A stretch of 64,000 nt of DNA from an uncultured Planctomycetales bacterium (GCA_964478715.1 CAYZIY010000003.1:6669-70668); one strand, 5' to 3'; shown: positions 10,477 through 64,000, numbered from the stretch's first letter. Translations and numbers: made by a program. The notes: generated by a model not told the origin, from the letters alone.

Positions 10477-10642
10477 TTGGTATTGATATAAAAAGTTGAG
10501 CCTGCTATTTCTTCGTAAGAAAATTATATTCTTTGATTTTCTAGCAATATTCATAATTTTATTTATTGACAAAACACAGTGGAAACTGTTGTGAACAATC
10601 TGCTTATTCAGATATTTGATACAAAATTTTGGAGGAAAAAAC

Positions 10643-11332
10643 ATGATTAAAGGACGGATACTGATTGTTGAGGATGACCGGAACATTTCTCAATTGGTGA
10701 AGTATAATCTAGAAAAGGCAGATTATCCATGCGTTGTTACTATTACCGGAGAGCAGGCTCTCGAAGTTCTTGATCAGCAGGCTATTGATTTGATTATTCT
10801 AGATATCATGTTACCTAAAATGGATGGTTTTCAAACATGTAAGCAAATTAAGAAGAACCAGCGTCTGGCATCGATTCCTATTGTTATGTTGACAGCCAGG
10901 GGGGAAGAGGTCGATCGCATTGTGGGTCTGGAGCTGGGCGCAGATGACTACATTGTTAAACCCTTTTCGCCTCGCGAACTTGTTTTAAGAATTGACGCTA
11001 TTTTACGCCGCGGAAAACCGCAAGAAGAAAGAAAAGATATTCTGACCATAGGTCGCTTAAAGGTAGATCTTCCTCGACATAAGGTTACTTTAGCCCAGAA
11101 GGAGGTGACTTTAACGGCCATGGAATTCAAACTGCTAGTCCTTTTGGTTCATCGCAAAGGACGTGTTCAAACTCGTGATCAACTTCTGACTGATGTCTGG
11201 AATTTGGATGCGGATGTGACCACCCGGACGATCGATACTCATATTAAACGATTAAGGCAAAAACTGGGCAAATGCGGAAAAATAATTCAGACCGTCAGAG
11301 GCTATGGATATAAAATTAAGGATGATCAGTAG
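10643..11332 (+). CDS. phoB: OmpR/PhoB-family response regulator
   Basis: GGAGG ribosome-binding site then ATG 10643. ILIVEDD...LDIMLPKMDG...MLTARGEEVDRIVGLELGADDYIVKPFSPREL plus a winged-helix C-terminus (TLTAMEFKLL...RTIDTHIKRLRQKL). Located in a Pi-uptake locus. Confidence 0.8.
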   Translation: MIKGRILIVEDDRNISQLVKYNLEKADYPCVVTITGEQALEVLDQQAIDLIILDIMLPKMDGFQTCKQIKKNQRLASIPIVMLTARGEEVDRIVGLELGADDYIVKPFSPRELVLRIDAILRRGKPQEERKDILTIGRLKVDLPRHKVTLAQKEVTLTAMEFKLLVLLVHRKGRVQTRDQLLTDVWNLDADVTTRTIDTHIKRLRQKLGKCGKIIQTVRGYGYKIKDDQ

Positions 11333-11334
11333 CT

Positions 11335-38993: not shown

Positions 38994-39298
38994 GAGGTTT
39001 CTTTATGGAACGGATCGGCATTGTTGCCAGTAAAATCGCTAGGGGAAACTTATTTTTATACAATCTCTTTGTTGTCTTGCTGATTCTTCTTTTTTCTGTT
39101 CTGGTATTTCTCATTTGTGCCGCTGCTTTGCTTTTAATTTTTATCATTGTTGACTACCTTCAAAGAGTGCAAATTAGCCCCGAGCTTTATCAGGGATGGA
39201 TTCCGTTTATTATTGGATGGTTTTCGAGCTTAGGCCTGATTATTGCCGTTTTTGCTTTATTCGCTCTGCTTAAAAATATCAAATTCAAGAAGAAATAG
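38990..39298 (+). CDS. small two-TM membrane protein
   Basis: 102 aa hydrophobic ORF, overlapping its neighbours by ATGA. Confidence 0.3.
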   Translation: MRGFFMERIGIVASKIARGNLFLYNLFVVLLILLFSVLVFLICAAALLLIFIIVDYLQRVQISPELYQGWIPFIIGWFSSLGLIIAVFALFALLKNIKFKKK

Positions 39299-39305
39299 AA
39301 TTTCG

Positions 39306-41606
39306 ATGACACCTGCAGCTATATCTGACCAACGAGAGATTCTTGAGAATCTACCCGTTGGAGTTTTTCGTCAAACGCCTACTACTAAGGGGCGTTTTCT
39401 TTTTATCAATGACACATTAGCGCAAATGCTTGAAGGCCATCAATCTGAAATTGCAAAATATAAACCCGCTCAATTATTTTTGCAGAAACAAAAATATCAG
39501 CGACTGATCACCGCCGTTAAAAGCAAAGGTCTTATTAAAAATAAAGAAATGACACTCAAGACCTGCCAGGATAAAGAGATGGATTGCCGGATAACGGGAC
39601 AGGCGATCAAAGGCGTCCGGGGTAAAATCGAGGCGATTGATTTTGTGATCGAAAATATAACCGTTGTTAAGCGCGTCCAGAGAGATTTACTCGAATCAAG
39701 AGAACTCTTTAGAGTAGTTTTCGACAATTCAGCGATCGCCATAACGGTCGTCGATAAGAGCGAAAAGATTATCGCCTGGAATCCTTTTGCCGAAAAGCTG
39801 CTCAAAATGAACAAAGAGGATCTTTTTAATAAGAATGTTAAAGATTTTTACCCTCTTTCGGAATGGCGCCGTATTCGGTCTCAAAGAGTGCGGCAGAAAG
39901 GCGTCCTTGAAGATTTAGAAACAAAAGTGATTCTTAAAAACGGCAAGTTGATCGATGTGGCTCTTTCTATATCGGTCTTAAAAGATGCAGAAGGCAAAGT
40001 AATTGGGGCGATCGGCATTATGAGCGATATTACCAAAAGAAAGATCGCCGAGAAGAAGCTCAAAGACAGCGAGAACAAAATTCGAGTTATTCTCAATAAT
40101 TCAGCGGCGGCCATGACGCTTCTGGATGACAAAGAACGGTTGATTTCCTGGAATAAATACACAGAGCAGCTTTTGGGGATGACTCAGAAGGAATTGTATT
40201 TAAAGCCGGTGAGCAGAATTTATCCTAAAGATGAGTGGGAGAAGATTCGCTCCTTCAATATAAGGGAATCAGGTTCCAAGCATCATATTGAGACGAGAAT
40301 CATCAGGAAAGACAACGCGATTATCGATGTCGATCTCTCCGTGAATGTGCTTAAAGACAGTGAAAGCAGGATTATTGGTTCTGTGGGTATCATGCAGGAT
40401 ATTTCGGAAAGAAAAAAAGTTGAGCAAGAATTGATTCAGGCTAAAATTGTAGCCGAAGAAGCTAATCAAGCCAAGAGCCTTTTTTTGGCCAATGTTTCTC
40501 ATGAGGTTCGCACACCCATGAATGCTATTTTGGGTATGGTTGACATGACATTAGATACGCAATTAACAAGCGAACAGAAAGAGAATTTGCAGACGGTTAA
40601 GGATGCGGCGGATAATCTTTTGGGATTAATCAATGATATCTTGGATTTATCCCGAATTGAGGCTGGTAAGACCAGGTTGGAGATTATTCCTTTCGAGATC
40701 GAAGAGGTCGTTAAAAGTGTATGTCGGGGTCTGCATGTTTTAGCCCGCAATAAAAATCTGGAGCTTGTTTGGGAGATTGATCCCGAAATTCCTCACACTA
40801 TTTTGGGAGATCCAACCCGAATCCGTCAGATCATCATTAATTTGGTCAATAATGCGATCAAGTTTACCAGTAAGGGCCAGATTCAGGTTCGTGTGGAATG
40901 GGAAAGAAATATAGAGAAACAATGCTGCCTGAATTTTTCAGTAAAAGATCAGGGTATCGGGATCCCTGCGGATAAATGTGCCGAAATATTTGACGCTTTT
41001 GTACAGGCCGATGATTCGATCACCAGGCGTTATGGCGGGACCGGTTTGGGTTTGGCCATCTCAAAAAGACTGGTAGAAATGATGGGAGGAACTATTTGGG
41101 TCGAGAGCCGGGAATCTCAAGGTAGCACATTTTCTTTTACCGCCTATTTCGATATTGTCGATAAGCCCGATCAGGCTTTGCCAAAAAGGAAGACGACCTT
41201 GATTATTCCTGAGGCCGATGATGATCTTACGGCTCTTAAAGTCCTTTTGGCTGAAGATAATCTTGTGAATCAAAAAATCATATCCAAGATGTTGGGCAAG
41301 CGTGGTTGGGATGTGATCCAGGTAGAAAACGGCCAAGAGGTTTTGGGGATTATTTCCAAAGAGGACGTGGATCTGATTCTTATGGATGTCCAGATGCCGG
41401 TCATGGACGGGCTGGAGGCGACACGCTTGATCAGGCAAGGCGAAAAGCAAACTGGGAAACATATCGCGATTGTGGCTCTGACCGCCCGGGCGATGGATGA
41501 AGATAAAAAGAAATGTCTTGATATCGGAATGGATGGCTATGTCTCTAAGCCGGTGGATCGAATGAAACTATTTGAAACCATTAAACAGGTGTTAAAGAAA
41601 GGATGA
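39306..41606 (+). CDS. hybrid sensor histidine kinase (multiple PAS - HisKA - HATPase - receiver)
   Basis: Three PAS-like segments (ITKRKIAEKKL / ISERKKVEQEL linkers). H-box ANVSHEVRTPMNAILG. N/G boxes. C-terminal receiver LLAEDNLVNQK...DLILMDVQMPVMDG...ALTA. Confidence 0.8.
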   Translation: MTPAAISDQREILENLPVGVFRQTPTTKGRFLFINDTLAQMLEGHQSEIAKYKPAQLFLQKQKYQRLITAVKSKGLIKNKEMTLKTCQDKEMDCRITGQAIKGVRGKIEAIDFVIENITVVKRVQRDLLESRELFRVVFDNSAIAITVVDKSEKIIAWNPFAEKLLKMNKEDLFNKNVKDFYPLSEWRRIRSQRVRQKGVLEDLETKVILKNGKLIDVALSISVLKDAEGKVIGAIGIMSDITKRKIAEKKLKDSENKIRVILNNSAAAMTLLDDKERLISWNKYTEQLLGMTQKELYLKPVSRIYPKDEWEKIRSFNIRESGSKHHIETRIIRKDNAIIDVDLSVNVLKDSESRIIGSVGIMQDISERKKVEQELIQAKIVAEEANQAKSLFLANVSHEVRTPMNAILGMVDMTLDTQLTSEQKENLQTVKDAADNLLGLINDILDLSRIEAGKTRLEIIPFEIEEVVKSVCRGLHVLARNKNLELVWEIDPEIPHTILGDPTRIRQIIINLVNNAIKFTSKGQIQVRVEWERNIEKQCCLNFSVKDQGIGIPADKCAEIFDAFVQADDSITRRYGGTGLGLAISKRLVEMMGGTIWVESRESQGSTFSFTAYFDIVDKPDQALPKRKTTLIIPEADDDLTALKVLLAEDNLVNQKIISKMLGKRGWDVIQVENGQEVLGIISKEDVDLILMDVQMPVMDGLEATRLIRQGEKQTGKHIAIVALTARAMDEDKKKCLDIGMDGYVSKPVDRMKLFETIKQVLKKG

Positions 41607-50209: not shown

Positions 50210-51135
50210 TGAATTCCAAAACAATCATTTTTATCGTTGGCCCGACGGCCGTGGGCAAGTCCGATGTGGCTTATCTCTTGGCCAAAAAAATTGATGCAGA
50301 GATTATTTCCTGCGATTCAATGCAGGTATATAAGAATATTCACATCGCTAGCAATAAGCCGTCTCCAGTTGTGCTCAAAAAGATTCCGCATCACTGTCTG
50401 GATCTTATCGATATTTCCAAAGAATTCAATGTCGCAGACTTTTATAAAAGAGCTAATCGCGCTGTGAGGGGTATTCATCGAAAGGGAAAATCGGTTATTG
50501 TTTGCGGTGGTAGCGGGCTATATATGGCCATTCTTCTCGATGGGATTTTTAGCGCAGGCGCTTTTAGCAAGCGCGTTCGACAAAAACTCCTCAAACAGGT
50601 CAAAGAGAAATCAGGGCGGTCTCTGTTTGATCAATTGAAGAAGAGGGATCCGCAAGCGGCCCAGAATATTCATCCGAATGATGCAAAAAAGATTGTTCGC
50701 GCCCTGGAAGTCTGCCTGGTTGCGGATCAGCCCTTTTCAAGGATAAAGAAAAAAAGGGAAGGGCTTTGGGGAAAATATTCGGTTCGGATATTTTGCCTTT
50801 CGAAAAATCGGCCAGAGCTTTATCAATGCATTAATCAAAGAGTTGATCATATGTTTAAAAAGCAGTTGGTGAAAGAAATCAAAAATCTACATGAAGAAAA
50901 ATGGAGCCAAACCGCACAGGCATTGATCGGAGTCAAGGAGATCAGAGATTATCTTAACGGGAAATGCTGCTTGGATGAGGCCAAGAGATTGATTCAAAGA
51001 AATACCAGACGGCTGGCGAAAAGGCAGTTGACCTGGTTTCGCAAAGATAAGCGATTAGAATGGATAGATGTCGATTCTTTGACCCCTGCGCGTGTGGCCG
51101 AAGAGATTACTCGACGATTGGAGAAAGAGCAGTGA
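50209..51135 (+). CDS. miaA: tRNA dimethylallyltransferase
   Basis: IFIVGPTAVGKSDVAYLLAKKIDAEIISCDSMQVYK (P-loop then DSMQVY). Confidence 0.85.
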   Translation: MNSKTIIFIVGPTAVGKSDVAYLLAKKIDAEIISCDSMQVYKNIHIASNKPSPVVLKKIPHHCLDLIDISKEFNVADFYKRANRAVRGIHRKGKSVIVCGGSGLYMAILLDGIFSAGAFSKRVRQKLLKQVKEKSGRSLFDQLKKRDPQAAQNIHPNDAKKIVRALEVCLVADQPFSRIKKKREGLWGKYSVRIFCLSKNRPELYQCINQRVDHMFKKQLVKEIKNLHEEKWSQTAQALIGVKEIRDYLNGKCCLDEAKRLIQRNTRRLAKRQLTWFRKDKRLEWIDVDSLTPARVAEEITRRLEKEQ

Positions 51136-52367
51136 GCGAAAGAATTTGTATCGTCACAATTGATTTTAACAGGCGCAATGACTGGTTGCCTGAAGATATC
51201 GCCGATGAATTAAAAGAGCTCGTTTCCTCTTGCGGTGGTAGACCAGCGCATTCATTAATCTGCCGCTGCCCCAAGCCGACCCCGGATTTATTGCTCGGAA
51301 GCGGAAAGGTTAAAGAGATTAAAGAGTGCTGTGTAGAACACAATATTGATACGGTTATTTTCAGTGTGGATCTTAAAGGCAATCAGCAGCGGAATTTAGA
51401 AGAGATCCTTGGTGTTAAAACGATTGACCGTACGCAGTTGATCCTGGATATTTTTGCCAAGCGGGCCAAAAGTCAAGAGGGCCGCGTGCAGGTCGAGCTC
51501 GCCCAGCTTCAATATTTGAGGCCTCGATTGGTTGGGAAGGGGGTTGAGCTCTCTCGACTGGGCGGTGGCATCGGGACATTAGGGCCTGGTGAAACCAAAC
51601 TCGAGACAGATCGACGACGTATTGAAACACGCATTGCCAAATTAAAGAAAGAACTCAAAGAAATCAGCCAAAACAGACATTTGAGAAGAAAAAAGAGAAT
51701 AAAAAAACAGATTCCTACGGTAGCTTTGGTTGGCTATACCAATGCAGGGAAATCTACTTTGCTTAATACGCTGACGGAATCCAAGCAGATGACGCGAAAT
51801 GGACTTTTCACCACTCTGGATCCCATCACGCGGCAGCTGACCCTTTCGAATCATCAAACGATCGTTTTATCCGATACCGTCGGATTCATGGTTAATTTAC
51901 CGCATCATTTGATCGAGGCTTTTAAGGCCACTCTGGAAGAGGTTATTGAGGCGGATCTTCTGTTGCATGTTCTGGATGTGAGCCATCCAAAGTTTAGACT
52001 GCTTCACGATGCCGTGATCCAGGTCCTGCGGGATCTGGACGCCTCCGATAAAACCATGTTGACGGTTTTTAATAAAATTGATCTTTTGCAAGACCGAAAG
52101 TGGCTTTGTGATCTTGAAAAGAATTATGATCATGCGGTCGCCGTTTCAGCCTTGAAGAAAGAAAATATCGATCAATGTAATGAAAAGATATCCAGTCTTT
52201 TACGTAAGACCATGATCGAAATCGATGTGACACTTCCTCTTCATCGGATGGATCTTGTTCATCGTCTTCACCAGGAAGGTGAGATTCACTTGATTGAGTA
52301 TAAGGCCGATTCTATTCACATTTGTGCCGTTGTTCCTATCCACATTGCCCATCAATACAACGCTTAA
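51134..52367 (+). CDS. hflX: GTPase HflX
   Basis: GTG start overlapping the miaA stop (GTGA). HflX N-domain. G1 GYTNAGKST, G3 DTVGF, NKID. Confidence 0.85.
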
Positions 52368-52483
52368 AAGACAAATCGAAAGTCAGCGAAATATTATTCT
52401 ACATTTTCTGGGAAAAATATATCGGGTTGTTAACCATACTTGCACGACGAGAAATTGATCAAAAAGAAAAACTTAAAAGAAAG

Positions 52484-52510
52484 CGTTTTCGCAAAAACGG
52501 CATTTTCTTT
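52484..52510 (+). terminator. weak rho-independent terminator downstream of hflX
   Basis: CGTTTT-CGCA-AAAACG hairpin followed by GCATTTTCTTT. Confidence 0.45.
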
Positions 52511-52538
52511 AGTTATTCCTGCGGAAGGACAATATATA

Positions 52539-52567
52539 TTGCATACTTTAATTAGAAGACAATTATA
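52539..52567 (+). promoter_or_regulatory. putative promoter driving the riboswitch leader and giant-adhesin operon
   Basis: TTGCAT (52539-44), a 17-nt spacer, then ATTATA/TTATAG (52562-68). Confidence 0.35.
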
Positions 52568-52619
52568 GCGTTTTGCCGATAAACCCGTAAAGTCGGGCCC
52601 GGCGGAGCCAAAGACGAAA

Positions 52620-52770
52620 GAGCTTTGGCGAAGACGGGGGCTAAACCATCGCAAGATGGCGACGCAAAGTTAAGGGTCCTTGCATTTTCAAGGATAGCCT
52701 AACTGCCGAAACAAAGACAGCTAGACTAAATGAACCTATTCCTTGGTGCAGGAATAGGTTTTTTACTTTA
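52620..52770 (+). promoter_or_regulatory. candidate c-di-GMP-I (GEMM) riboswitch with an intrinsic-terminator expression platform
   Basis: GGGGGCUAAACC, then hairpin CCAUC-GCAA-GAUGG (GNRA loop), then CGACGCAAAG, then a second hairpin GGUCCUUG-CAUUUUC-CAAGGAU, then AGCC. This parallels the Vibrio Vc2 aptamer ...GGGCAAACCAUUCGAAAGAGUGGGACGCAAAGCC... Followed by terminator CCTATTCC-TTGGTGCA-GGAATAGG TTTTTT (52735-52764). Confidence 0.5.
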
Positions 52771-52789
52771 AATACCCAACGGAGACAAA

Positions 52790-52987
52790 ATGGATAGTTT
52801 TGTTATGACTGAAGAACAAATTCATGAATGGGTTAATCGGATGCAAATAAATAAAAGAAAGCCTTTTCTTCATGATAAGGATTTTCAAATAAAAGCTTGG
52901 CAGATTCATCAAAATTATTGCATGTTTGAAAGGAAGGCAGGGGTTTTGAAAATAACCCCTGTTTTTTTATGTGGGAGGCAAACATGA
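52790..52987 (+). CDS. small ORF (65 aa) translationally coupled (ATGA) to the giant adhesin gene
   Basis: GGAGA ribosome-binding site 5 nt upstream. Stop TGA 52985-87 overlaps ATG 52984 of the giant ORF. No recognisable motif. Confidence 0.3.
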   Translation: MDSFVMTEEQIHEWVNRMQINKRKPFLHDKDFQIKAWQIHQNYCMFERKAGVLKITPVFLCGRQT

Positions 52988-55900
52988 AAAAAACATTTCC
53001 CTATCTTTTGGCATTCTTAATGGCTTTATGGAGTCCAGCTAAGGGCTTCTCATTGGAAATCACCCATGTTTCCGGTTGTGCTGAGGTCGATACAGATTAT
53101 CAATGTGTTGAAATCGCCAGTTGTCAAGATCTTACTCAATCTAACACATATTATTTGCTGGCGGACGATATTGTTACCGGTGGAACGTGTTTTACCAATC
53201 ACGTCAGCAATATTCACTTGGATCTTAACAGCTATACCGTCAGTTATGCTCAGACGGAACCGGGACATGCCTTTTATGAACAATGGTCTAATCGGGATAA
53301 TGTTACGATTGAAAATGGCTTCATGATTGGCGGCTATCAGAACAATAGTCACGCTCTTTATTGGGTTACAGACGGATCAGACAACCTTGTCATTCGCAAT
53401 TTGAGCTTAAGCGTTGCCGGGGTCGAGACAAGCGGTATTAAAATCGGTACGGGCAATAATCTTGAGATTCATCATGTGAATATTGAAATGGATTCAGATA
53501 AAGCCGATCCATGCTCTCATTATGGAGAACCGATCGCTGGCATAAGCCTCGCTCATCGTGGAGGCGATATTGATATTCACCATAACTTTGTGACTGGAAC
53601 CGGAATGACTGGAATTGTCACTTCCAGCTGCGGGACCTATACCGAACCTCTAGAAATTCACAACAACTATATTAGTACATGGAGTCCGGTCAGGGACGGT
53701 TATGCTATTGGGATTTCGGGTACTAATAATAGCTGCTCGGACGGAACATTGATTTACGATAATACGATCAATCAACAAAACGGCCGAGGGATTATTGTTG
53801 ATGGATGGACCGGCAATGAATCTTACGGACCGGGAAATATCGAAATGTACGGCAATCATATTACGGTCAAAGAAGGGTGGGACTGCGAATATGATCGACC
53901 AGGTACAGCCGCAGGCATCCGACTAAGGTTTGGTGCTCATGATGTCTATGCGCACGACAATGAGATTTACGGTTTGGCCGGCACAGGTGTAGCTGTGGGA
54001 TCAGAGCCAGGTAAAGATGGAGCCACCGCCATTGGAATTTATTCGGGAAGCAGTCTTCCTTACGGGCTCAATAATCGATTTGAGAATAATTATGTGGAGG
54101 TTTCCACCAATGATGCCCGTTATCCGGCTATTGGCCTTTATGTCGCCGGAGGAGATCAAAATACCTCAGCGGCTTTTTCCCAGTTTTTAAACAATACTAT
54201 CGTTAGTAATAACAAACCGATCAGGATTGGATATAGCGATGGAGGAGGGTCTCAGGCCGATTTTGACTCCAACACCATTGTTCGTGGAGATAATCCCTTA
54301 GATTTTCATACCTACACGGTTGGATACTGGATTTTCGGTGCGCATCATATCGATTTTCTTGATTCGATCGTTGAAGGAGGCGCTAGCGCTCAGGATATTG
54401 TTTTTGACAGCGCCTGCGAAGGATCGTGCGCGAATTATGAAAATATCACCTTATCCTGGACTCTAAATTTGCAAGTTGAAAATAGTGGTGCCAATAGGAT
54501 TGAGGGAGCCAGTGTGCAAATCACAGATTCTGATAACCAAATAGTGGCTCAAGGTCAGACGGACGCACAGGGTCTGTTTAGTCAGACTCTAGTTGAGAAA
54601 AGCTTTGAGGGTATTCTTCAACCCGATGAGTTTATTCATACGCCTCATGAAATTCAAATTGAAAAAGCCGGTTATCAGACATATTCAGATTCGCTTGTCA
54701 TGGATTCAACAAAAACAGTGATTGTCAATCTTCAGGAAGGAAGTTCGAATCAGGCGCCCATTCTTGAACCTCTTACGGAATGGTCTGTCTTTACTGGTGA
54801 GAGTATTGAAATACTTGTCTCGGCTATAGATCCTGATAATGATCCTATAGAGCTTAGCGCTTCAACACTTCCTAGCGGAGCCCAATTCTTAGATTATGCA
54901 AACGGGACTGGAATTTTTAGCTGGATTCCTTCCGTGGATGGACTTTATTCGATCAGCTTCACAGCATCCGACGGTTATCTAAGTGATATAGAAACGTTAC
55001 AGATTGCCGTTCTTGCAGGCGCACCAGAAGGCAATCAGGCTCCCGTCTTATCTGAAATCAGCGATCAAACGGGGTACCCTTTTGAGCTTTTGACGTTTGA
55101 GGTGACAGCTACCGACTCTGATGATGATCTCTTAACTTATTGGGCCGAGAATCTTCCCAATGGAGCCGATTTTATGGATCAGACATTCATCTGGTTTCCC
55201 GATGATACTCAATTAGGTACTCACACAATAACGTTTTTTGTCAGCGATGGGGAATATACAGATTCCCAAGATGTAACAGTGACCATTCAAGACAGCGCCG
55301 GATGCGTTTATCCTCAGACGTATCCGCATCCCGACGGCTCATGCCGTGTGTTGCCGCATATTAATGTGGCCGGGGTATCTTATAGCAATCCTGATACAGA
55401 CCAAGAATATGACTGGCGAGTAGAGCATTATGATCTTCTCCTTTTTACTTTTGGGTCCTATGTTCTCGATGAATTTATTGGCGTTAAAGAAAGGTCGCCA
55501 GGATTGGTTTCTCTTAGATATGACAATATGCATTCTCACATCATGTATCACGATAGAAAAATGAATGCACTGGATGATTGGATTGAGAATCACCCAGAAT
55601 ATGGAGTTTTTGAAGATTATTTTCTTCATTATAAATATGATTGTATTCAAGCTGGAATTGAAAGAAAAGGCTGGAATCCCGATGAGGATTTGAATGTCAA
55701 TCACATTAGAGATGGTTATGAAGCAAACCCACAAACAGATCCTATTGATCCAAACCGCAGCGCTGACTTCAAGCATGAAAGCAGAATAATGACCAGATAT
55801 AACCGGACAGATCGTGTTTTTGCTAATGTGGGGCATGCTGGCTATCAAGCTTTTAATGCGCAATTTTCTTATGATGAAGTTCATACAGCCGATGTTCCAA

Positions 55901-58900
55901 GCATTGGCTATGATTTTGATGGAATGTTTGTGGATAATACAAATACTTATGCTTTTATGTGGGACAGTGTTCCAGACAATGAAGTTTTAGAATATCCGGA
56001 TGATCCTCAAAGAGAAGAAGATTGGCATGAGGATATGGTTGAAACTTTTGCTGCCGTCAAGGCCCAATTAGCTGATAAAAAACTCTATATTAATACGATA
56101 TATTTTCATCTTCCACAATACTTCCCAGTCACCGACGGTGATTTTAAGGAATATGTTATTCACGGCCGTTCTAGTATGGGAGGCGGCGAACCTTATTATA
56201 TGCATTTGGCAAGATTGGCAACAGAAGCAGAGCAATATTCTGTGTTAACAGTAGCTAATTATACTGATGAAAGCGGAAATCCGTTATATACGTTTTCAGA
56301 AGATAGGTATAAAATTTTCACCTTAGCCCAATATTATTTATTGCATAGTCCTTATACGTACTTTAACTATCAGGTAGGAAATACCTCATGGAATCATGAC
56401 TTACATGCGCAGTGGTTTGAGGCGATGGGATACAATATTGGAATTCCTATTGGTGATGAGTATATTTATGCCACAGATAATCAACCTAATGGGCAGGCCG
56501 CTGTCTATGCGCGGGAATTCACCAATGGGCTTGTTTTGGCAAAATTCAAACCGAATTGGGTGAATGACTTTGATCAACCATCGACGCATGATTTAGGCGG
56601 AAGCTATAAGCTTTTGGGTGTCGATGGATCTCTGGGGCCGGTGATCAATCAAATCACTTTGCGCAATTCACAAGCTGCTATTCTGATTCCTGCGAGCAGT
56701 GGCGGTGAAAATTACCCACCAGTTCTACAGCCAATCGGAAACAGAGAAGTGCTGGAAGGAGCCACACTTAACTTTAGTGTCTCGGCGAGTGATCCCAATG
56801 GAGATGTTCTTACCTATACAGCCGAAAATATTCCCGCGGGTTCAAATTTCTCGAATCAAACATTTACCTGGACACCGGGCTATGATCAAGCCGGAACTTA
56901 CTCTGTGAATTTTATTGTCAGTGACGGGGAATTAAGCGACAGTGAACAGATCCAAATCGCCGTTGTCGATAATGATCCTGATACCCAAGCGCCGTCAATT
57001 CCTCAGAATTTTACTGCCCAGGCTTTGTCAGGTGTCCAAGTGCAGCTAACTTGGGAGGTGTCAACAGATAATGTAGGCGTTACAGGCTATCATATTTACC
57101 GCGATGGAGCTGAAGTAGCAACTACGACAACAACGTCTTACCTTGATTCAAGCCTGGAGCAGTTAACGAGATATTCATACGAAATCTCTGCTTATGACGC
57201 AAGCGGAAATGAATCTGCGCTCTCAGATGCAGTCGATGTCACAACGCCTGGAACAACGACCGTCGAAGTGATCGGTTTAGTTCGAGAAGATTGCAGTGGA
57301 TATTCCAATTGCTATTCATCATTGACTCAGTGGGAGTCCAGCTATGGCGGCGTAGATTTTGGATCTTGCCCCCACGGTGATCTAGTCTGCGCTGATGCGG
57401 TGGCCATAGCGCAGATAGACGGCATTTGGAATAGTCCCGAAACCGGCCGAGTTGTGATCGACGGATGGACAACAGACGAGGATCATTATATCAAGATTTT
57501 TACTGCCCCTGAAGCCAGACATGACGGCAAATGGAACGAATCAAAATATCGCCTGGAAGGCTCTCATCTGTGGACACCCATTCTTCAAGTCAGTGAAGAT
57601 TATGTGGTTATCGATGGCCTGCAAATATTCAATAGCGCTACTCAAAATCAACCGGTGGGTGTTGTGATTGATAACCGTTCTACATTAGGAGGGGATGTTC
57701 GTATTAAAAATAATATTATACGATTTCCCAAAGAGGTTTTGCCGTATCAGGCTGGCATTACGCTAAGGATTGATCCTCAGACAACGGTAAAAGTTCTAAA
57801 CAATATCATTATCAATCCCTACGATGGTATTTCGGCCGCTCCCTGGAGCGGAGATAAAGGAACGTATGTGATTTATAATAATACTCTTGTCGACCCCAAG
57901 CGGTATGGGATTCAGTGCGCCTTTGAAGGCAGCGGTCAGGGCGCCCTTTTACTTAAGAACAATCTCGTTCAGGGTATCAATACTAATTATGATATTTATG
58001 GATCCTCAAATCTTAATCTCTTTGAGCACGCGGCTAATATTTCGGAAGATGCCTCATCGCCTGACGATGCGCTCAGAAACAAACAGGCTCTGTTCGTTGA
58101 GGAAGCTCTCGATGATTTTCATCTTTCCGAAAGCGATATCACAGCTAAGGACATGGGTGTGGATTTAAGCAATAATAGTTACGCTCCCTTTGACAATGAT
58201 ATTGACGGTGAAAATCGAGCATCACTTTGGGATATCGGCGCGGATGAGTATGTTTCTTCTGCTGTCAATCATCCGCCGGTTCTAGAAACGATCGATCCCC
58301 AGGAAGGCTTTATCGGTGATCCGATTATTTTTGAGGCGACAGCGACAGATCCCGATGGGGATGTCTTGAACTATTCGGCGACCGGACTTCCAGCTGGAGC
58401 GATTTTTGAGAATCAGGTTTTCAGCTGGACTCCTGACGAGACCCAAGAGGGTCAACATCAAATAACTGTTACGGTTGACGATGGAGATCTTGATGATTCT
58501 CAAGTGGTTTCTATTACCGTTGTTGGGATTAATGATCCTCCGATTCTTGAGCCAATCGGCAACAAAATTGTGAACGAAGGCGAGGAATTAAGTTTTACCA
58601 TCAATGCTATGGATCCGGATGAAGACGGTATTCTTTTGACTATCTCGACCGAGATCCCGGATGTTGTTCTTACAGATAATGGAAACGGCACAGCTGATTT
58701 CAGCTGGATACCTGGCTATGATCAAGCCGGCAGTTATCAAGCGACCTTTAACGCTCAGGATGAAGGCGGCTTAACAGATCAAGAGACAATCACCATTGAA
58801 GTCTATGGAACAAACCGGCCGCCTGAAATTGATCAGATCTCGGATCAAACAATTAATGAGGGAGAGGAGCTTATTTTTGATGTAATGGCTATAGATCCTG

Positions 58901-61900
58901 ATGATGACGGAATTCTTCTTAGCATGAGCGGCTTGGACGATGCTTCCTTTGTTGATTACGGCGATGGCTCAGGAACCTTTAGCTGGAGTCCAGATTTTAC
59001 TCAATCAGGTAATTATCAGGCGGTCTTTACAGCCCAGGACGATGGGGGTTTGAGTGATCAGGTTCAGGTTAGCATTCAGGTTGTTAATGTCAACCAGCCC
59101 CCAATCCTTGATCCTGTTGGCGATCAATCCGTGAATGAAGGCCAATTTCTCGACATCACTCTCAGCGCTATTGATCCTGACGGAGAAACACTGATTTACT
59201 CGGCTGCTGATCTTCCGCAAGGCGCCGCACTAATCGAGAATCAATTAACCTGGACGCCTACGTATGATCAATCCGGTTCTTATCCGGTCACCTTAAGAGT
59301 TGAAGACTTAGGGGGTCTGATTGATTCTGAGACAATAACGATTACCGTTGATCACATCAACAGAGCTCCTATTCTTGATCCCATCGGTAACCATCAGGTG
59401 GCTGAAGGCAATACAATATCGATTACGTTGAGTGCTTTTGATCCAGATGGAGATCTTTTAAACTATCATGTACGCAATGAGCCTCAAGGGGCAAGTCTGA
59501 TAGGTCACGTCTTTAGCTGGACGCCTGGTTACTCAGATGCCGGAAATTATGAAGTGACTTTTAGTGTAGATGATGGACAGCTGAATGATATTGAGGAAAT
59601 TATTATTAGCGTTGGAAATATAAATCGGCCTCCGGAATTTGATATCATCAGCCCTCAGGTCGTGGATGAAAATCAGATCTTGTTGTTCATGCTGAGCGCT
59701 TCAGATCCCGATGGCGACAATTTGATTTACAATTCCATCGGCTTACCGATAGGTTCTTCTTTTGATTCAGCAACCAAAGAATTTACATGGACGCCCGATT
59801 ATGATCAGGCAGGTACTCATGTTGCAGAATTCAGTGTGACCGATGGAGATCTTAGCGATACTCTCACCGTCGAGATTGCTGTAATGGATGTCAACAGGAC
59901 ACCAACCCTCGAACCTTTGCAGGCAGAATATAGCGTTAATGAAAACGAAGTCTTCATCATTTCCTTGGATGCCTCTGATCCTGATCAGGATGCTTTAAGC
60001 TTGACCATGCAGCCGGCTTTAGAGGGCGCTAGAATTGATAATCAAATACTAAGTTGGCTGCCGAGCTTTGAGCAAGCCGGCGTTTATGAAGTGACCTTTA
60101 CGGTGAGTGATGGAGATCTTTCTGACCAGCAAACGACAACGCTCATTGTTAACAATATCAACCGGGCTCCGGTCTTTGAACCCATCGGTAACCAGGAAGT
60201 TGAGGAAGGAGAGAGCCTTTCCATAATTCTCAACGCTTCTGACCCCGATGGAGACGATTTGACATTTACTTCATCTGATTTACCGGACGGTTCTTCGATT
60301 GGCGGAGAAAACGGAAATATCTTTCTCTGGTCTCCCACGCATACCCAGTCAGGAGTTTATGAGGTGACCATAACGGTTACCGATTCACAACTCACTGGTT
60401 CACAGATGAGTGAGATAACTGTTGTAAATATCAATCGGGCACCTGTTCTTGATCCTATCGAAAATCAATCGATTCAGGAAGGGGAAACGCTGGAAATCCA
60501 GCTTTCAGGAACGGATCCCGACGGAGATGCACTGACATACTCAGCTTCCAATCTTCCCGAAGGCGCTAATTTCTCAAGCGCAAGCGGACTTTTTCAATGG
60601 ACACCAACATTTGATCAAAACGGAACTTACATACTTATTTTTGTTGTCAGTGATGGTGAATTAACTGATTCTCAAGAGGCAACGTTGACAGTGATTAATA
60701 ATAACCGGATACCTTCTTTAGATCCTATCGGGCCCAAAGAAGTCCATGAAAACTCAAATCTCACCTTTCAGATCAATGGATCAGATCCTGATGGGGATAG
60801 CTTGCAGTTTACAGCCAAGCAACTTCCTGAAGGAGCGAACTTCACAAATCAGATATTCAGCTGGACTCCAAATTATGATCAGGAAGGGGAATACTTTGTC
60901 ACCTTTACAGTAGATGATGGACAGCTCTCTGATTCTGAAGAAATCTTTATCACTGTCTATGGATCCAACAGAGCTCCTGTCTTGGATCCAATTGGAGATA
61001 GAACGGTTGACGAGGGAGATCTTTTAACTTTTACAGTCACAGCCACTGATCCTGACGGTCATCCTTTAACGTACTCAGCTTCTAATCTTCCAGAAGGCGC
61101 TACCTTTGCAAATCAAGCTTTCAGCTGGACTCCTGACTTTGGTCAATCTGGAAGTTATGAGGTCACTTTCACCGTGATGGATACTAGTGAGCTTCTCATT
61201 CTGGATGATTCAGAGACAATCACGATTACAGTCAATGATGTGAATCGGGCACCTGTGCTGGATCCCATAGGAAATCAATCGATTCAGGAAGGGGAAACGC
61301 TGGAAATCCAGCTTTCGGGAACGGATCCCGACGGAGATGTATTGACATACTCGGCTTTAGGTCTTCCTGAAGGCGCTGACTTCTTTGAAGACTTAGGGCT
61401 GTTTACTTGGACACCAACCTTCGGAGAGCAAGGAATCTACACTTTATCTTTTATTCTCAGCGACGGTTCTTTGACTGACGAAGAGTCTATTTCTATTTCT
61501 GTTGGCAATGTGAATCAACCACCTGTTTTAGACCCTATTGATGATCAGGCAGTTTTAGAGGGAGAACAGATCAGCATCCAGCTTGCCGCCAGCGATCCGG
61601 ATGGACAGACATTAATCTATTTCGCAGAAAATCTTCCTCAGGGAGCTGATCTTTTATCGGAGAATGGTTTGTTTGAATGGATTCCCGGATTTGATCAGTC
61701 GGGTGAGTATATTGTTACCTTGGGCGTGACAGACGGAGTATTAGAAGATACACAGGATGTCATTTTGACGATCACCAATGTCAATCGCGCGCCTCAAATC
61801 AGCCCTGTTGAACAACAGGAAGTTCATGAGAATCAAAATCTAAGCTTCTCTATTACTGCGGATGATCCCGACGGGGATATCATAACCTATTCGGCTCAGG

Positions 61901-64000
61901 GATTACCCAGCGGAGCTCAGTTTACGGATCAAACTTTCAATTGGACCCCTGATTATGAGCAGAAAGGAACCTATCAGGTAGGTTTTACGGCCAGTGATGG
62001 TGAGCTGTCAGGTTCAATGACCGTTACGATAATTGTCTATGGAACCAATCGGCCGCCGGTTTTAAGTCCGATCCACGATCAAATCATTGAGGAGGCCGAT
62101 TTATTATCCTTCGATGTTATAGGCAGTGATCCCGATGGAAATTCTCTTAGTTACAGAGCTTCGGGTTTGCCTCAAGGGGCCATCTTTGAAAACCAGGTCT
62201 TCAGCTGGATTCCGACATATGATCAAGCTGGAAGCTATGAGGTTACCTTTACGGTTATGGATACCAGTGAATTAATGGTTCTGGAAGACAGCGAGACGAT
62301 CACTATCACCGTTGTCAATGTCAATCGAGCACCGGTTTTGGAGTCAATCCCTAATCAGGAAATAGAAGAAGGGCAGCAGCTTACTTTTAGTATCGCGGCC
62401 ACAGATCCTGATGATGATTCCTTAACATTCACTGCTGGAGATTTACCGCAGGGTGCTCAGTTTGAAAATCAAATCTTCAGTTGGATTCCCGCAAATGAGC
62501 AAGTCGGAGTCCATGAGGTTACTTTTAATGTCAGCGATGGAGCATTGTCTGATTCCCAAACAATTTCGATTGTCGTTACAGAAATTGTCATACCACCGGA
62601 AAATCATCCGCCGGTTCTTGATCCTATCGGGAATAAGGAGATGGACGAAGGCCAGCAATTGAGTTTTGTTGTCACCGCTTCTGATCCTGATGGAGATCAG
62701 CTGATGATTTCTGCTTCTCATATTCCCTTCGGCGCACAATTTAACGAACAATCCGGTCTATTTGAATGGACACCCTCTTATGAGCAGGCCGGAGAATATC
62801 AAATAACTTTTATAGTATCGGACGGTCAGTTGCGCGATTCAGAAGCCATCACAATTAATGTAAGAGACGTGAATCTTGCACCGATTTTGGAACCCATTGG
62901 TGACAAAAGAGTTGAAATCAGAACAGAACTCAGCTTTCAAGTAATGGGTTTAGATCCAGACAATGATTCGCTATCCTATTCTGTCAATGGTTTGCCGCAG
63001 GGAGCCAAATTCAAAAATCAATTATTCCGCTGGAAACCATCCAAAGAACAGGTAGGCCAGTATCAACTGGAATTCTTTGTCAGCGATGGCCAGTTGCGGG
63101 ACAGCGAGATGATTCAAATTAATGTGTATGAAACCAATACTGATCCTAGCGAAAATCAGCCGCCTATTTTAGATGCCATTGGCAATAAAACTGTCGCGGC
63201 CGAAGATTTGCTCAGGTTTCGTATTAAATCGATAGATCCCGACGGAGATCTCTTGATTCTGGTCGTTCGCGATTTGCCTGCTGGTGCGTCAATGGATGAT
63301 GATCTCTTTCAATGGAGACCCACAGACGATCAAGTCGGACAATATTTCGTCACATTTATTGTCACCGAAGGGGTTTATGACGAATCGGGGGTGCTGATTG
63401 CCGCTGATGGTGCTTATAGTGATCAGGAGACTGTTAAGATCAAGGTCTTTAAAGGGGAGCAACCGCAGCCGCGTTCAACGGAGAACGAAACACAGATACT
63501 GGAAGGTGAATCAGGCCAGGATTCGGCAAATGGGACGGATGGTGATGATCTGTCTCAAACGTCATCCTATTATGGGGGTTTAGCGTATATAGTTTCCGAT
63601 GACAATGAAAAACAAGAGATGACCCTCCAGCAATCAGACAAAACAGCAAAGGGAAATTCTGCAAAAAGCAAAACTAGAAAGAATAACAGAGCGCCTGTCA
63701 TTTTGACCAATGATCAAACAGAACTGGAAGAGGGAACACAAGCAGTCATTCAGGTTTTTGCCAGCGATCCTGACCAGGATTCTTTGGTTCTTTCAACAGA
63801 AGAACTGCCCTTGGGAGCCGTATTTGTGGATCGGGGCGATGGCATCGGAGAGATTGTTTGGAATCCTTATGATGATCAGGTGGGTGAGCATACAATCAAT
63901 GTGATTGTGACAGACGGCCAGGTTCAGGACACAAAAAGCATCAATTTTATGATCAATAAGGCCAGTGATGCCCCAGATGAAGGGAATTTGCCTGAGGAAT
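52984..64000 (+). CDS. giant secreted multi-domain surface protein (adhesin-like), 5' portion of >3,670 codons: signal peptide, beta-helix, CarboxypepD_reg-like, cadherin-like repeats, unknown ~470-aa domain, FN3, second beta-helix, >=21 further cadherin-like (He_PIG/dystroglycan-type) repeats. The 3' end is outside the window.
   Basis: Frame 1 is open from ATG 52984 (GGGAGG ribosome-binding site 8 nt upstream) to the window end. I translated line-by-line and found no stops. Signal peptide MKKTFPYLLAFLMALWSPAKG. Repeats of the form N[RQ][AP]P.[LI][DE]PIGN..V.EGE.L.F...A.DPDGD.L.Y.A..LP.GA.F....F.WTP...Q.G.Y.V.F.V.DG.L.D. FN3 consensus ...GYHIYRDGAEVATTTTTSY...YSYEISAYDASGNES. Absent from the supplied ORF track because no stop codon occurs in the window. 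Confidence 0.85.
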   Translation, partial: MKKTFPYLLAFLMALWSPAKGFSLEITHVSGCAEVDTDYQCVEIASCQDLTQSNTYYLLADDIVTGGTCFTNHVSNIHLDLNSYTVSYAQTEPGHAFYEQWSNRDNVTIENGFMIGGYQNNSHALYWVTDGSDNLVIRNLSLSVAGVETSGIKIGTGNNLEIHHVNIEMDSDKADPCSHYGEPIAGISLAHRGGDIDIHHNFVTGTGMTGIVTSSCGTYTEPLEIHNNYISTWSPVRDGYAIGISGTNNSCSDGTLIYDNTINQQNGRGIIVDGWTGNESYGPGNIEMYGNHITVKEGWDCEYDRPGTAAGIRLRFGAHDVYAHDNEIYGLAGTGVAVGSEPGKDGATAIGIYSGSSLPYGLNNRFENNYVEVSTNDARYPAIGLYVAGGDQNTSAAFSQFLNNTIVSNNKPIRIGYSDGGGSQADFDSNTIVRGDNPLDFHTYTVGYWIFGAHHIDFLDSIVEGGASAQDIVFDSACEGSCANYENITLSWTLNLQVENSGANRIEGASVQITDSDNQIVAQGQTDAQGLFSQTLVEKSFEGILQPDEFIHTPHEIQIEKAGYQTYSDSLVMDSTKTVIVNLQEGSSNQAPILEPLTEWSVFTGESIEILVSAIDPDNDPIELSASTLPSGAQFLDYANGTGIFSWIPSVDGLYSISFTASDGYLSDIETLQIAVLAGAPEGNQAPVLSEISDQTGYPFELLTFEVTATDSDDDLLTYWAENLPNGADFMDQTFIWFPDDTQLGTHTITFFVSDGEYTDSQDVTVTIQDSAGCVYPQTYPHPDGSCRVLPHINVAGVSYSNPDTDQEYDWRVEHYDLLLFTFGSYVLDEFIGVKERSPGLVSLRYDNMHSHIMYHDRKMNALDDWIENHPEYGVFEDYFLHYKYDCIQAGIERKGWNPDEDLNVNHIRDGYEANPQTDPIDPNRSADFKHESRIMTRYNRTDRVFANVGHAGYQAFNAQFSYDEVHTADVPSIGYDFDGMFVDNTNTYAFMWDSVPDNEVLEYPDDPQREEDWHEDMVETFAAVKAQLADKKLYINTIYFHLPQYFPVTDGDFKEYVIHGRSSMGGGEPYYMHLARLATEAEQYSVLTVANYTDESGNPLYTFSEDRYKIFTLAQYYLLHSPYTYFNYQVGNTSWNHDLHAQWFEAMGYNIGIPIGDEYIYATDNQPNGQAAVYAREFTNGLVLAKFKPNWVNDFDQPSTHDLGGSYKLLGVDGSLGPVINQITLRNSQAAILIPASSGGENYPPVLQPIGNREVLEGATLNFSVSASDPNGDVLTYTAENIPAGSNFSNQTFTWTPGYDQAGTYSVNFIVSDGELSDSEQIQIAVVDNDPDTQAPSIPQNFTAQALSGVQVQLTWEVSTDNVGVTGYHIYRDGAEVATTTTTSYLDSSLEQLTRYSYEISAYDASGNESALSDAVDVTTPGTTTVEVIGLVREDCSGYSNCYSSLTQWESSYGGVDFGSCPHGDLVCADAVAIAQIDGIWNSPETGRVVIDGWTTDEDHYIKIFTAPEARHDGKWNESKYRLEGSHLWTPILQVSEDYVVIDGLQIFNSATQNQPVGVVIDNRSTLGGDVRIKNNIIRFPKEVLPYQAGITLRIDPQTTVKVLNNIIINPYDGISAAPWSGDKGTYVIYNNTLVDPKRYGIQCAFEGSGQGALLLKNNLVQGINTNYDIYGSSNLNLFEHAANISEDASSPDDALRNKQALFVEEALDDFHLSESDITAKDMGVDLSNNSYAPFDNDIDGENRASLWDIGADEYVSSAVNHPPVLETIDPQEGFIGDPIIFEATATDPDGDVLNYSATGLPAGAIFENQVFSWTPDETQEGQHQITVTVDDGDLDDSQVVSITVVGINDPPILEPIGNKIVNEGEELSFTINAMDPDEDGILLTISTEIPDVVLTDNGNGTADFSWIPGYDQAGSYQATFNAQDEGGLTDQETITIEVYGTNRPPEIDQISDQTINEGEELIFDVMAIDPDDDGILLSMSGLDDASFVDYGDGSGTFSWSPDFTQSGNYQAVFTAQDDGGLSDQVQVSIQVVNVNQPPILDPVGDQSVNEGQFLDITLSAIDPDGETLIYSAADLPQGAALIENQLTWTPTYDQSGSYPVTLRVEDLGGLIDSETITITVDHINRAPILDPIGNHQVAEGNTISITLSAFDPDGDLLNYHVRNEPQGASLIGHVFSWTPGYSDAGNYEVTFSVDDGQLNDIEEIIISVGNINRPPEFDIISPQVVDENQILLFMLSASDPDGDNLIYNSIGLPIGSSFDSATKEFTWTPDYDQAGTHVAEFSVTDGDLSDTLTVEIAVMDVNRTPTLEPLQAEYSVNENEVFIISLDASDPDQDALSLTMQPALEGARIDNQILSWLPSFEQAGVYEVTFTVSDGDLSDQQTTTLIVNNINRAPVFEPIGNQEVEEGESLSIILNASDPDGDDLTFTSSDLPDGSSIGGENGNIFLWSPTHTQSGVYEVTITVTDSQLTGSQMSEITVVNINRAPVLDPIENQSIQEGETLEIQLSGTDPDGDALTYSASNLPEGANFSSASGLFQWTPTFDQNGTYILIFVVSDGELTDSQEATLTVINNNRIPSLDPIGPKEVHENSNLTFQINGSDPDGDSLQFTAKQLPEGANFTNQIFSWTPNYDQEGEYFVTFTVDDGQLSDSEEIFITVYGSNRAPVLDPIGDRTVDEGDLLTFTVTATDPDGHPLTYSASNLPEGATFANQAFSWTPDFGQSGSYEVTFTVMDTSELLILDDSETITITVNDVNRAPVLDPIGNQSIQEGETLEIQLSGTDPDGDVLTYSALGLPEGADFFEDLGLFTWTPTFGEQGIYTLSFILSDGSLTDEESISISVGNVNQPPVLDPIDDQAVLEGEQISIQLAASDPDGQTLIYFAENLPQGADLLSENGLFEWIPGFDQSGEYIVTLGVTDGVLEDTQDVILTITNVNRAPQISPVEQQEVHENQNLSFSITADDPDGDIITYSAQGLPSGAQFTDQTFNWTPDYEQKGTYQVGFTASDGELSGSMTVTIIVYGTNRPPVLSPIHDQIIEEADLLSFDVIGSDPDGNSLSYRASGLPQGAIFENQVFSWIPTYDQAGSYEVTFTVMDTSELMVLEDSETITITVVNVNRAPVLESIPNQEIEEGQQLTFSIAATDPDDDSLTFTAGDLPQGAQFENQIFSWIPANEQVGVHEVTFNVSDGALSDSQTISIVVTEIVIPPENHPPVLDPIGNKEMDEGQQLSFVVTASDPDGDQLMISASHIPFGAQFNEQSGLFEWTPSYEQAGEYQITFIVSDGQLRDSEAITINVRDVNLAPILEPIGDKRVEIRTELSFQVMGLDPDNDSLSYSVNGLPQGAKFKNQLFRWKPSKEQVGQYQLEFFVSDGQLRDSEMIQINVYETNTDPSENQPPILDAIGNKTVAAEDLLRFRIKSIDPDGDLLILVVRDLPAGASMDDDLFQWRPTDDQVGQYFVTFIVTEGVYDESGVLIAADGAYSDQETVKIKVFKGEQPQPRSTENETQILEGESGQDSANGTDGDDLSQTSSYYGGLAYIVSDDNEKQEMTLQQSDKTAKGNSAKSKTRKNNRAPVILTNDQTELEEGTQAVIQVFASDPDQDSLVLSTEELPLGAVFVDRGDGIGEIVWNPYDDQVGEHTINVIVTDGQVQDTKSINFMINKASDAPDEGNLPEE
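58264..63426 (+). repeat. tandem array of ~270-282-nt coding repeats (about 19 consecutive cadherin-like domain units), then a low-complexity linker and a further unit from 63694
   Basis: Unit boundaries (NRAPVLDPIGN-type) at ~58264, 58540, 58812, 59092, 59365, 59626, 59893, 60166, 60436, 60706, 60973, 61246, 61513, 61783, 62053, 62323, 62611, 62878 and 63160. Units 60436-60700 and 61246-61510 share ~90-nt near-identical DNA. Confidence 0.8.

Follow-up and report, generated by a model that had tools for sequence, protein, structure and literature searches.

Downstream of hflX in a 64,000-nucleotide (64 kb) stretch of DNA, given as one strand and referred to here as the window (all coordinates are window positions), lies a leader that almost certainly encodes, at 52629–52710, the aptamer of a class I cyclic di-GMP (c-di-GMP) riboswitch, also known as GEMM-I. 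The aptamer is followed on the same strand by an intrinsic terminator (T1), a 65-codon open reading frame (ORF), a second intrinsic terminator (T2) and a giant secreted repeat protein gene. The best explanation of the whole, to which we give a probability of about 0.5, is that the class I aptamer and T1 form an OFF switch upstream of the small ORF and of the giant gene. Judged by its HflX protein, the host organism is a member of Candidatus Omnitrophota: all named HflX relatives belong to this group, and the identical protein (P0020) itself is found on NCBI and Logan contigs. The metagenome runs SRR7048227 and SRR7048228 contain the locus. The giant surface proteins of Omnitrophota are believed to attach the cell to prey or hosts.

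The identity of the aptamer is carried by a covariance search of the whole window, both strands, against 4227 Rfam families (cmscan). RF01051 (c-di-GMP-I) matches 52629–52710 on the plus strand, scoring 59.6 bits where the gathering score is 35 (E 3.9e-9), covers model positions 1–87 of 87 without truncation, and is the sole Rfam match at or above its gathering score in the window. As the E value applies to both strands of the window and all families searched, the match is far beyond chance, and contig L023, from a second, independent assembly of the organism, returns an identical match. A preliminary description of this DNA had proposed a c-di-GMP-I (GEMM) riboswitch, and the covariance search, some 25 bits above threshold, bears it out; the strings on which the proposal was built (GGGGGCUAAACC, a P2 hairpin CCAUC-GCAA-GAUGG, CGACGCAAAG, then a P3 hairpin) are all present in the order and place described. 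The full aptamer sequence is CGAAGACGGGGGCUAAACCAUCGCAAGAUGGCGACGCAAAGUUAAGGGUCCUUGCAUUUUCAAGGAUAGCCUAACUGCCGAA. A permissive Rfam scan of 52300–53100 (E<=10) gave no match to RF01786 (c-di-GMP-II), and a class II identity was rejected on this basis. In the same scan no other Rfam family came near threshold, two related variant families of the RF01051 clan scored below RF01051, and a tandem or second aptamer, sought in 52570–52628, had no match. The GEMM-Ib variants, which bind 3'3'-cyclic GMP-AMP (cGAMP), are marked by A at position 20 (PMC6140456); the corresponding position here, 52639, is G, and this identity was also rejected.

In Vc2 of Vibrio cholerae, the type example of RF01051, the ligand is contacted by G20, A47 and C92 (PMC4744006, PMC6140456), and the universally conserved interhelical pair C44–G83 is essential (PMC11705072). 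Once the sequences are aligned on the Rfam model, the conserved positions are present: G52639, A52666 and C52706 are the equivalents of the three contacts, and the interhelical pair is predicted to be formed by C52663 (within GAC) and G52697 (within the unpaired AG of P3). This correspondence of Vc2 numbers with model columns draws in part on the Vc2 sequence itself. The junction is closed by G52640–C52641 pairing with G52664–C52665 (G40–C41/G64–C65 in shortened form). P2 (52645–52660) brings together ACCAUC (52645–50) and GAUGGC (52655–60) around a GCAA tetraloop (52651–54), with an A–C mismatch at its base, while P3 (52668–52704, A to U) has a CAUUUU loop and the usual unpaired A (52672) and AG (52696–97). 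Standard pairs make up 14 of 14 in P3 and five of six in P2; of the scored pairs, 18 of 20 are standard. Set beside the consensus of the family, P3 carries double substitutions in three of its basal pairs (C–G to U–A twice, and C–G to A–U), and one pair of P2 has changed from G–C to A–U. The 11-nt receptor is absent from P3, where the consensus CUAA and UAU columns are deleted in the alignment. GEMM RNAs with a GYRA rather than a GAAA tetraloop are known to lose this receptor (Weinberg 2007; PMC1950547), and on its sequence the aptamer is of the GYRA-loop, receptor-less GEMM-I subtype. Every defining feature of RF01051 that could be tested is found in the RNA except a clean P1 and J1/2 region (J1/2 being the P1–P2 junction), and the locus is one genuine but ordinary instance added to a well-known family.

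Covariation was assessed at the level of the family. Among 121 metagenome GEMM-I sequences found with a general short-P3 pattern, 59 were aligned together with this sequence, giving a set of 60. In this set 94.6% of cells pair, compared with 12–43% when the partners are slid, and double-change cells number 118 compared with 27.5 in shuffles. Since some core positions were fixed by the search pattern, these figures are informative for P2 and parts of P3 only.

The terminator is the second component of the switch. T1 contains an 11-nt perfect inverted repeat (52733–43/52750–60; 12 pairs including a G–U) with a 6-nt loop and T6, at -15.6 kcal/mol and z -5.28. The strong terminator with an 8-bp stem and U6 that had been described from the sequence is thus correct as to terminator and T6, but its stem is longer and stronger than described. 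T1 starts 22 nt past the aptamer 3' end and shares no nucleotides with it, so the terminator could form in full with the ligand-bound aptamer in place. Within the leader, the T1 5' arm has a complement solely in the P3 3' strand, with its toehold AUAG that contains the G83 equivalent, and none in the linker 52711–31. The candidate antiterminator that these two strands would form (Table 1) encloses an inner imperfect hairpin, AGCCUAACUG/CAGCUAGACU. When the growing transcript is folded, the antiterminator is the minimum free energy (MFE) structure only for 3' ends at 52747–52752, within 0.2–2.4 kcal/mol of the aptamer fold, with the two folds near iso-energetic at transcript ends 52747–52750; at full length, the aptamer with T1 wins by >12 kcal/mol.

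In the proposed mechanism, c-di-GMP would lock P2/P3 and the junction, whereupon the T1 hairpin would form and end transcription ahead of both downstream ORFs, the small and the giant one. When c-di-GMP is low, some of the nascent RNAs would instead pair the 3' strand of P3 with the 5' arm of T1 and allow read-through. The logic would be that of an OFF switch, since the ligand would sequester the P3 3' strand and leave T1 free. Taken by itself, the OFF direction is in our view evenly poised on the folding models. The class I riboswitches of Clostridioides difficile are almost uniformly OFF, c-di-GMP ending their transcripts prematurely, and share the order of aptamer, then terminator; Cdi-1-3 lies before flgB and Cdi-1-2 before a putative adhesin (PMC6200980). 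The OFF direction was validated experimentally in C. difficile, whereas here we infer it; C. difficile also belongs to another phylum, and the likeness is that of the family core alone.

The giant ORF has >3672 codons, is still open at the window end and begins with a signal-peptide-like N-terminus. Its domains comprise GHL15, fn3, beta-helix and >20 He_PIG/Big_9/PKD/Cadherin-like repeats, and the name 'cadherin-like adhesin', used in the preliminary description, fits the repeats fairly. The GHL15 match (hypothetical glycosyl hydrolase family 15) is at 55900–56530 (aa ~976–1182), with a second beta-helix region further on, and the domain content suggests an enzymatic as well as an adhesive function. 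The N-terminal domain (aa 1–580, 52984–54723) has ~45% identity to stand-alone proteins of 600–900 aa in other metagenomes; some of these homologues adjoin polysaccharide-lyase-like and beta-helix proteins (contig L002) or carry dockerin or Big domains. The leader is directly upstream of, and on the same strand as, ORFs with good Shine–Dalgarno (SD) sequences. From this position and from the folding, the riboswitch probably does control the giant ORF. The earlier proposal that the adhesin lies downstream and under c-di-GMP control stands as to the ORF, its repeats and the upstream position of the aptamer, but the giant gene is not the first one downstream, as the 65-codon ORF and T2 intervene, and the layout points to repression rather than to the induction that is commonly assumed for adhesins.

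Table 1. Features of the leader and the genes that follow it, in window coordinates
Feature	Position	Strand	Basis or description
Small leader hairpin CCCG-UAAAGU-CGGG	52584–52597	+	MFE folds; not individually significant
P0 upstream hairpin	52598–52638	+	-17.7 kcal/mol, z -3.94; inverted repeat I1, direct repeat D8
Candidate canonical P1	52623–52716	+	CUUUG 52623–27/CAAAG 52712–16 and CG 52629–30/CG 52707–08
Aptamer	52629–52710	+	RF01051 match; P2 and P3 pairs; family-level covariation
Candidate antiterminator	52689–52746	+	P3 3' strand CAAGGAUAG (52689–97) with T1 5' arm CUAUUCCUUG (52737–46)
T1 intrinsic terminator	stem 52732–52761, T run 52759–52764	+	Terminator scan; inverted repeat I6, 100% complementary
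65-codon orphan ORF	52790–52987	+	SD GGAG 52781–84; gene calls on two independent Logan contigs
T2 second intrinsic terminator	52938–52968	+	CAGGGGUU-UUGAAAAU-AACCCCUG and U7; inverted repeat I22
Giant secreted repeat protein ORF	52984–64000, running off window	+	ATG 52984; SD GGGAGG 52973–78

Several observations weigh against an OFF switch built in this way. The J1/2 region is atypical, with GGG at positions -3 to -1 of the G20 equivalent, and at position -2 in particular the base is G, where 105 other GEMM-I sequences have A in 96 and G in none. Folds that contain the upstream hairpin P0 are 10–14 kcal/mol more stable than folds in which canonical P1 is enforced. Tested against the 3' half of P3, 14% of shuffled arms do as well as the antiterminator duplex (-9.7 kcal/mol), and against the whole aptamer 59% do; the duplex is therefore not significant, and this lowers confidence in the OFF direction. 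T1 and the aptamer together are the ground state with or without ligand, so that read-through would need a kinetic trap. T2 lies between the riboswitch and the giant ORF, and transcripts from upstream must consequently pass two terminators. Lastly, no orthologous leader was found in the collections searched.

The first two of these points bear on the 5' side of the aptamer. J1/2 is three bases longer than usual (CGAAGAC-GGG-G20, compared with CGA-N-A-A-R-G20 in the family), and an extra U is inserted in the junction (GGC-U-AAACC). None of 200 shuffles is as stable as P0. The 3' strand of this hairpin, CUUUGGCGAAGACGGG, takes in the 5' strand of canonical P1 together with J1/2 and stops just short of the G20 equivalent. 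The 5' strand of P0, GCGGAGCCAAAGAC, copies the aptamer 3' tail GCCGAAACAAAGAC (52705–52718) at 79%, a likeness to be expected of two strands that compete for one partner. The candidate P1 has seven of seven pairs standard, is mutually exclusive with P0, and has the same layout (CG/CG pair, internal loop, outer helix) as metagenome GEMM-I leaders. Folds that keep P0 close the aptamer instead by a distal helix, GUUUUG 52570–75/CGAAAC 52707–12. The ligand-binding free energy of Vc2 is about -9 kcal/mol by isothermal titration calorimetry (PMC11705072), and the advantage of P0 is of comparable size. If P0 is transcribed, which depends on the start site, the folding models lead one to expect either a lower apparent affinity for the ligand or a junction of non-standard form. 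Both the G at -2 and the ability of P0 to outcompete P1 could be read as signs of a degenerate or re-purposed aptamer that no longer binds c-di-GMP or binds another ligand. We consider this very improbable, given that the three contact nucleotides and the C44–G83 pair are canonical, the score lies well above threshold, the helices are kept by compensatory changes, and the related variant families of the clan scored lower.

The direction of the switch could also be the reverse, with c-di-GMP blocking T1 and inducing the adhesin-like gene. Many GEMM-I RNAs are ON switches in which the 5' arm of the terminator shares sequence with the distal hairpin on its 3' side (78/322; PMC1950547), exactly this overlapping layout is found in the most similar-looking metagenome GEMM-I sequences (L069, L096 and L103), and ON control is what would be expected for surface adhesins, as with Vc1/gbpA (PMC4744006). 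The geometry at this locus is different, however: T1 begins clear of the aptamer, the sole complement of its 5' arm is the P3 strand that ligand binding would sequester, and no fold was found in which a ligand-bound aptamer blocks T1. An ON switch is accordingly rated as distinctly unlikely. Of the metagenome GEMM-I sequences, L096 (8174–8310) looks the most similar, with a GCAA loop and a GUAAAGGGUC P3 base; its ON-type terminator overlaps the aptamer 3' strand, and ~600 nt further on it has an 853-aa protein (8872–11433) with four Big_5 immunoglobulin-like repeats.

A third possibility is that T1 terminates essentially always, yielding a short aptamer RNA, while the giant gene is transcribed from its own promoter downstream of T1. 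The short RNA would arise from its own promoter or from the 3' end of miaA-hflX transcripts, and might serve as a c-di-GMP sink or have c-di-GMP-dependent stability. Every full-length fold has T1 and the aptamer as its ground state, the antiterminator is not beyond chance, and T1 is the first strong terminator after hflX: between hflX and the aptamer the only candidate for one is an AU hairpin (-8.5 kcal/mol, z -1.7), and with no strong terminator there, read-through from hflX is possible. Downstream of T1 are both a promoter-like site (TTGAAA-16-GAAAAT, 52926–52953) and what may be a diverged copy of a leader segment (52844–52959). The copy rests on a weak colinear likeness of ~120 nt between this segment, which lies in the 3' half of the small ORF, and the non-coding segment 52466–52586, and includes TATTGCAT and GTTTTG..ATAA(A)CCC. 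Precedents for a terminated class I RNA are given by Vc2 at the 3' end of a small RNA (bioRxiv 10.1101/617340) and by the merRNA of Bdellovibrio bacteriovorus, a class I aptamer in a predatory or host-dependent bacterium which may act as a terminated RNA (PMC3627812). Against constitutive termination, the promoter-like matches of the region are about as many as chance alone would give (3, with 1.9 expected), and the duplicated segment is marginal, its score of 22.5 (12.6 +/- 2.1 in shuffles) being reached by 1/300 shuffles. Moreover, ORFs with good SD sequences directly follow on the same strand, whereas merRNA has no downstream ORF, and the hflX genes of relatives lack such a 3' element. We regard constitutive termination as unlikely.

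The promoter assumed for the leader itself fared less well than the aptamer. The preliminary description had a promoter-like element, but a sigma-70 consensus scan lists no plus-strand site at 52539–52568. Near 52539, TTGCAT has 3/6 consensus matches and no good -10 element, and the motif TATTGCAT occurs only at chance frequency in the window; the candidate promoter at 52539 was rejected. Omnitrophota promoters are uncharacterised, so the failure of a sigma-70 consensus does not argue against a promoter there. The non-coding gap past hflX, described as ~420 nt, does hold: it measures 422 nt, bounded by the hflX stop (52367) and the ATG of the next gene call (52790), with the HflX identity given by Pfam.

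What follows T1 raises a further question for the OFF switch. The TGA of the 65-codon ORF overlaps the ATG of the giant ORF (ATGA, 52984–87). The small ORF has no Pfam match, and a search of 1.84 billion representative proteins gave no homologue. At 7.0, its codon log-odds fall inside the range for real 65-codon gene pieces (11.5 +/- 4.0) and exceed those of most spurious ORFs, and its GC of 0.32–0.33 is intergenic-like. It may be a leader ORF or spurious. T2 is placed wholly inside it, 16 nt before the giant-ORF ATG, with an 8-bp GC-rich stem (CAGGGGUU/AACCCCUG at 52938–61) at -20.0 kcal/mol and z -4.45. The T2 region gives terminator-type partial matches in the permissive Rfam scan; the terminator scan listed the hairpin on the minus strand only, despite the longer T run of its plus-strand form. 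Translation of the leader ORF could suppress T2; T2 could instead mark where a short riboswitch transcript truly ends, the giant gene then having a promoter of its own; or it could belong to a dual-terminator platform like that of Bc1 (PMC11218506). The sequence ATTTTCAA (52684–52691; P3 loop and start of the 3' strand) recurs at 52881–52888 and is perfectly complementary to the T2 loop TTGAAAAT (52946–52953), which could reflect a loop–loop contact or chance in AT-rich sequence.

On this evidence the leader might hold two checkpoints, the riboswitch and T1 gating entry and T2 acting as a translation-dependent attenuator, such that polymerase would reach the giant ORF only when translation of the 65-codon ORF carries ribosomes through the T2 hairpin. 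The placing of the strong T2 hairpin, the ATGA overlap with a good SD at both starts, and the gene-like codon log-odds of the small ORF are in its favour. Bc1 of the Bacillus cereus group offers a precedent, with a class I aptamer and two rho-independent terminators before the gene (PMC11218506), but its terminators are 28 bp apart and form one platform, whereas here they are ~175 nt apart (52764 to 52938), with the second inside the ORF. The small ORF, moreover, has no homologue, is intergenic-like in GC and partly resembles the upstream non-coding segment, and the arrangement finds no comparative support. Two such checkpoints seem to us rather doubtful. A still more elaborate control region would combine P0, as a decoy mimicking the P1 3' strand, with T1 in the OFF sense and a translation-dependent T2 in a coupled leader ORF. 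The effect of P0 would then be either a c-di-GMP threshold that is several orders of magnitude higher or an aptamer with an expanded multi-helix junction, closed by a distal P1' (52570–75/52707–12). Although we think this improbable, if true it would describe an RNA-level, c-di-GMP-repressed and translation-gated giant attachment protein in a putatively predatory Omnitrophota lineage.

Comparison with relatives places the riboswitch with the giant gene. The nearest HflX relatives (64–68% identity) keep the upstream synteny, with the Cys/Met pyridoxal phosphate enzyme metC, a TPR-SPOR protein, miaA and hflX. Past hflX, three relatives' contigs (L025, L026 and L028) have unrelated genes and no Rfam match. 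The genes found there in relatives are peptidase S8, dockerin, C25 peptidase and BNR secreted or surface genes, or a toxin–antitoxin pair, and the region past hflX looks like a variable region among Omnitrophota relatives. GTDB genomes reached by HflX (best 53% identity) showed no riboswitch, nor did four contexts of homologues of the adhesin N-terminal domain (N-terminal 580 aa, ~45% identity). A lineage-specific aptamer pattern had no metagenome match, and none of the 121 GEMM-I sequences returned by the general short-P3 pattern is close to this aptamer; these served for the family-level pair counts and the statistics on the junction alone. As HflX relatives are without the riboswitch, it would appear to travel with a lineage-specific giant-gene cassette, not with hflX.

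Among characterised systems, Vc2 is the natural point of comparison. Both RNAs have the two-hairpin aptamer with the core GGC...GACGCAAAG...AGCC...CUGCCGAA, the G20/A47/C92 and C44–G83 equivalents, a first hairpin capped by a GNRA loop, and a regulatory position 5' to a gene for a surface protein. They differ in that the loop is GCAA here and GAAA in Vc2, the 11-nt receptor is lacking here (the known subtype), a U is inserted in the GGC-AAA-CC junction, the base of P2 has its A–C mismatch, and the longer J1/2 is G-rich, with P0 competing with P1. In Omnitrophota, giant genes have been tied to c-di-GMP only by neighbouring pilZ genes and embedded GGDEF domains (bioRxiv 10.1101/2023.11.21.568195), and the literature on these giant genes makes no mention of riboswitches (bioRxiv 10.1101/2023.11.21.568195; 10.64898/2026.06.07.730766). 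The aptamer adds an RNA-level c-di-GMP sensor to Omnitrophota biology. If the OFF direction is true, production of the giant protein would go with low c-di-GMP. This would run counter to the usual rule, by which c-di-GMP promotes adhesion, but C. difficile provides a precedent. For riboswitch biology, only the competition of P0 with P1 and the presence of a second terminator are of specialist note.

As regards the wider setting, hflX occupies 51132–52367 on the plus strand in its 411-aa form, identical to P0020, with the Pfam domains GTP-bdg_N/M and MMR_HSR1. Its longest ORF starts at 51060, while the 411-aa protein in the database starts at 51132, its ATG overlapping the miaA stop codon; miaA and hflX adjoin, with no hfq between them. 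On some metagenome contigs, paired near-identical GEMM-I aptamers lie 1.4–1.9 kb apart, each before its own gene (L097, 1514–1560 and 3369–3415; L030/L045, contig Ga0209378_1001398). A motif scan of the whole window for c-di-GMP enzymes and receptors (GGDEF, EAL, HD-GYP and PilZ) gave nothing credible. Pfam searches of ten upstream ORFs returned housekeeping genes and a PAS hybrid histidine kinase. The latter (39243–41606) has two PAS domains, HisKA, HATPase and a receiver, together with a weak match to a diguanylate-cyclase-type sensor domain, without a GGDEF domain.

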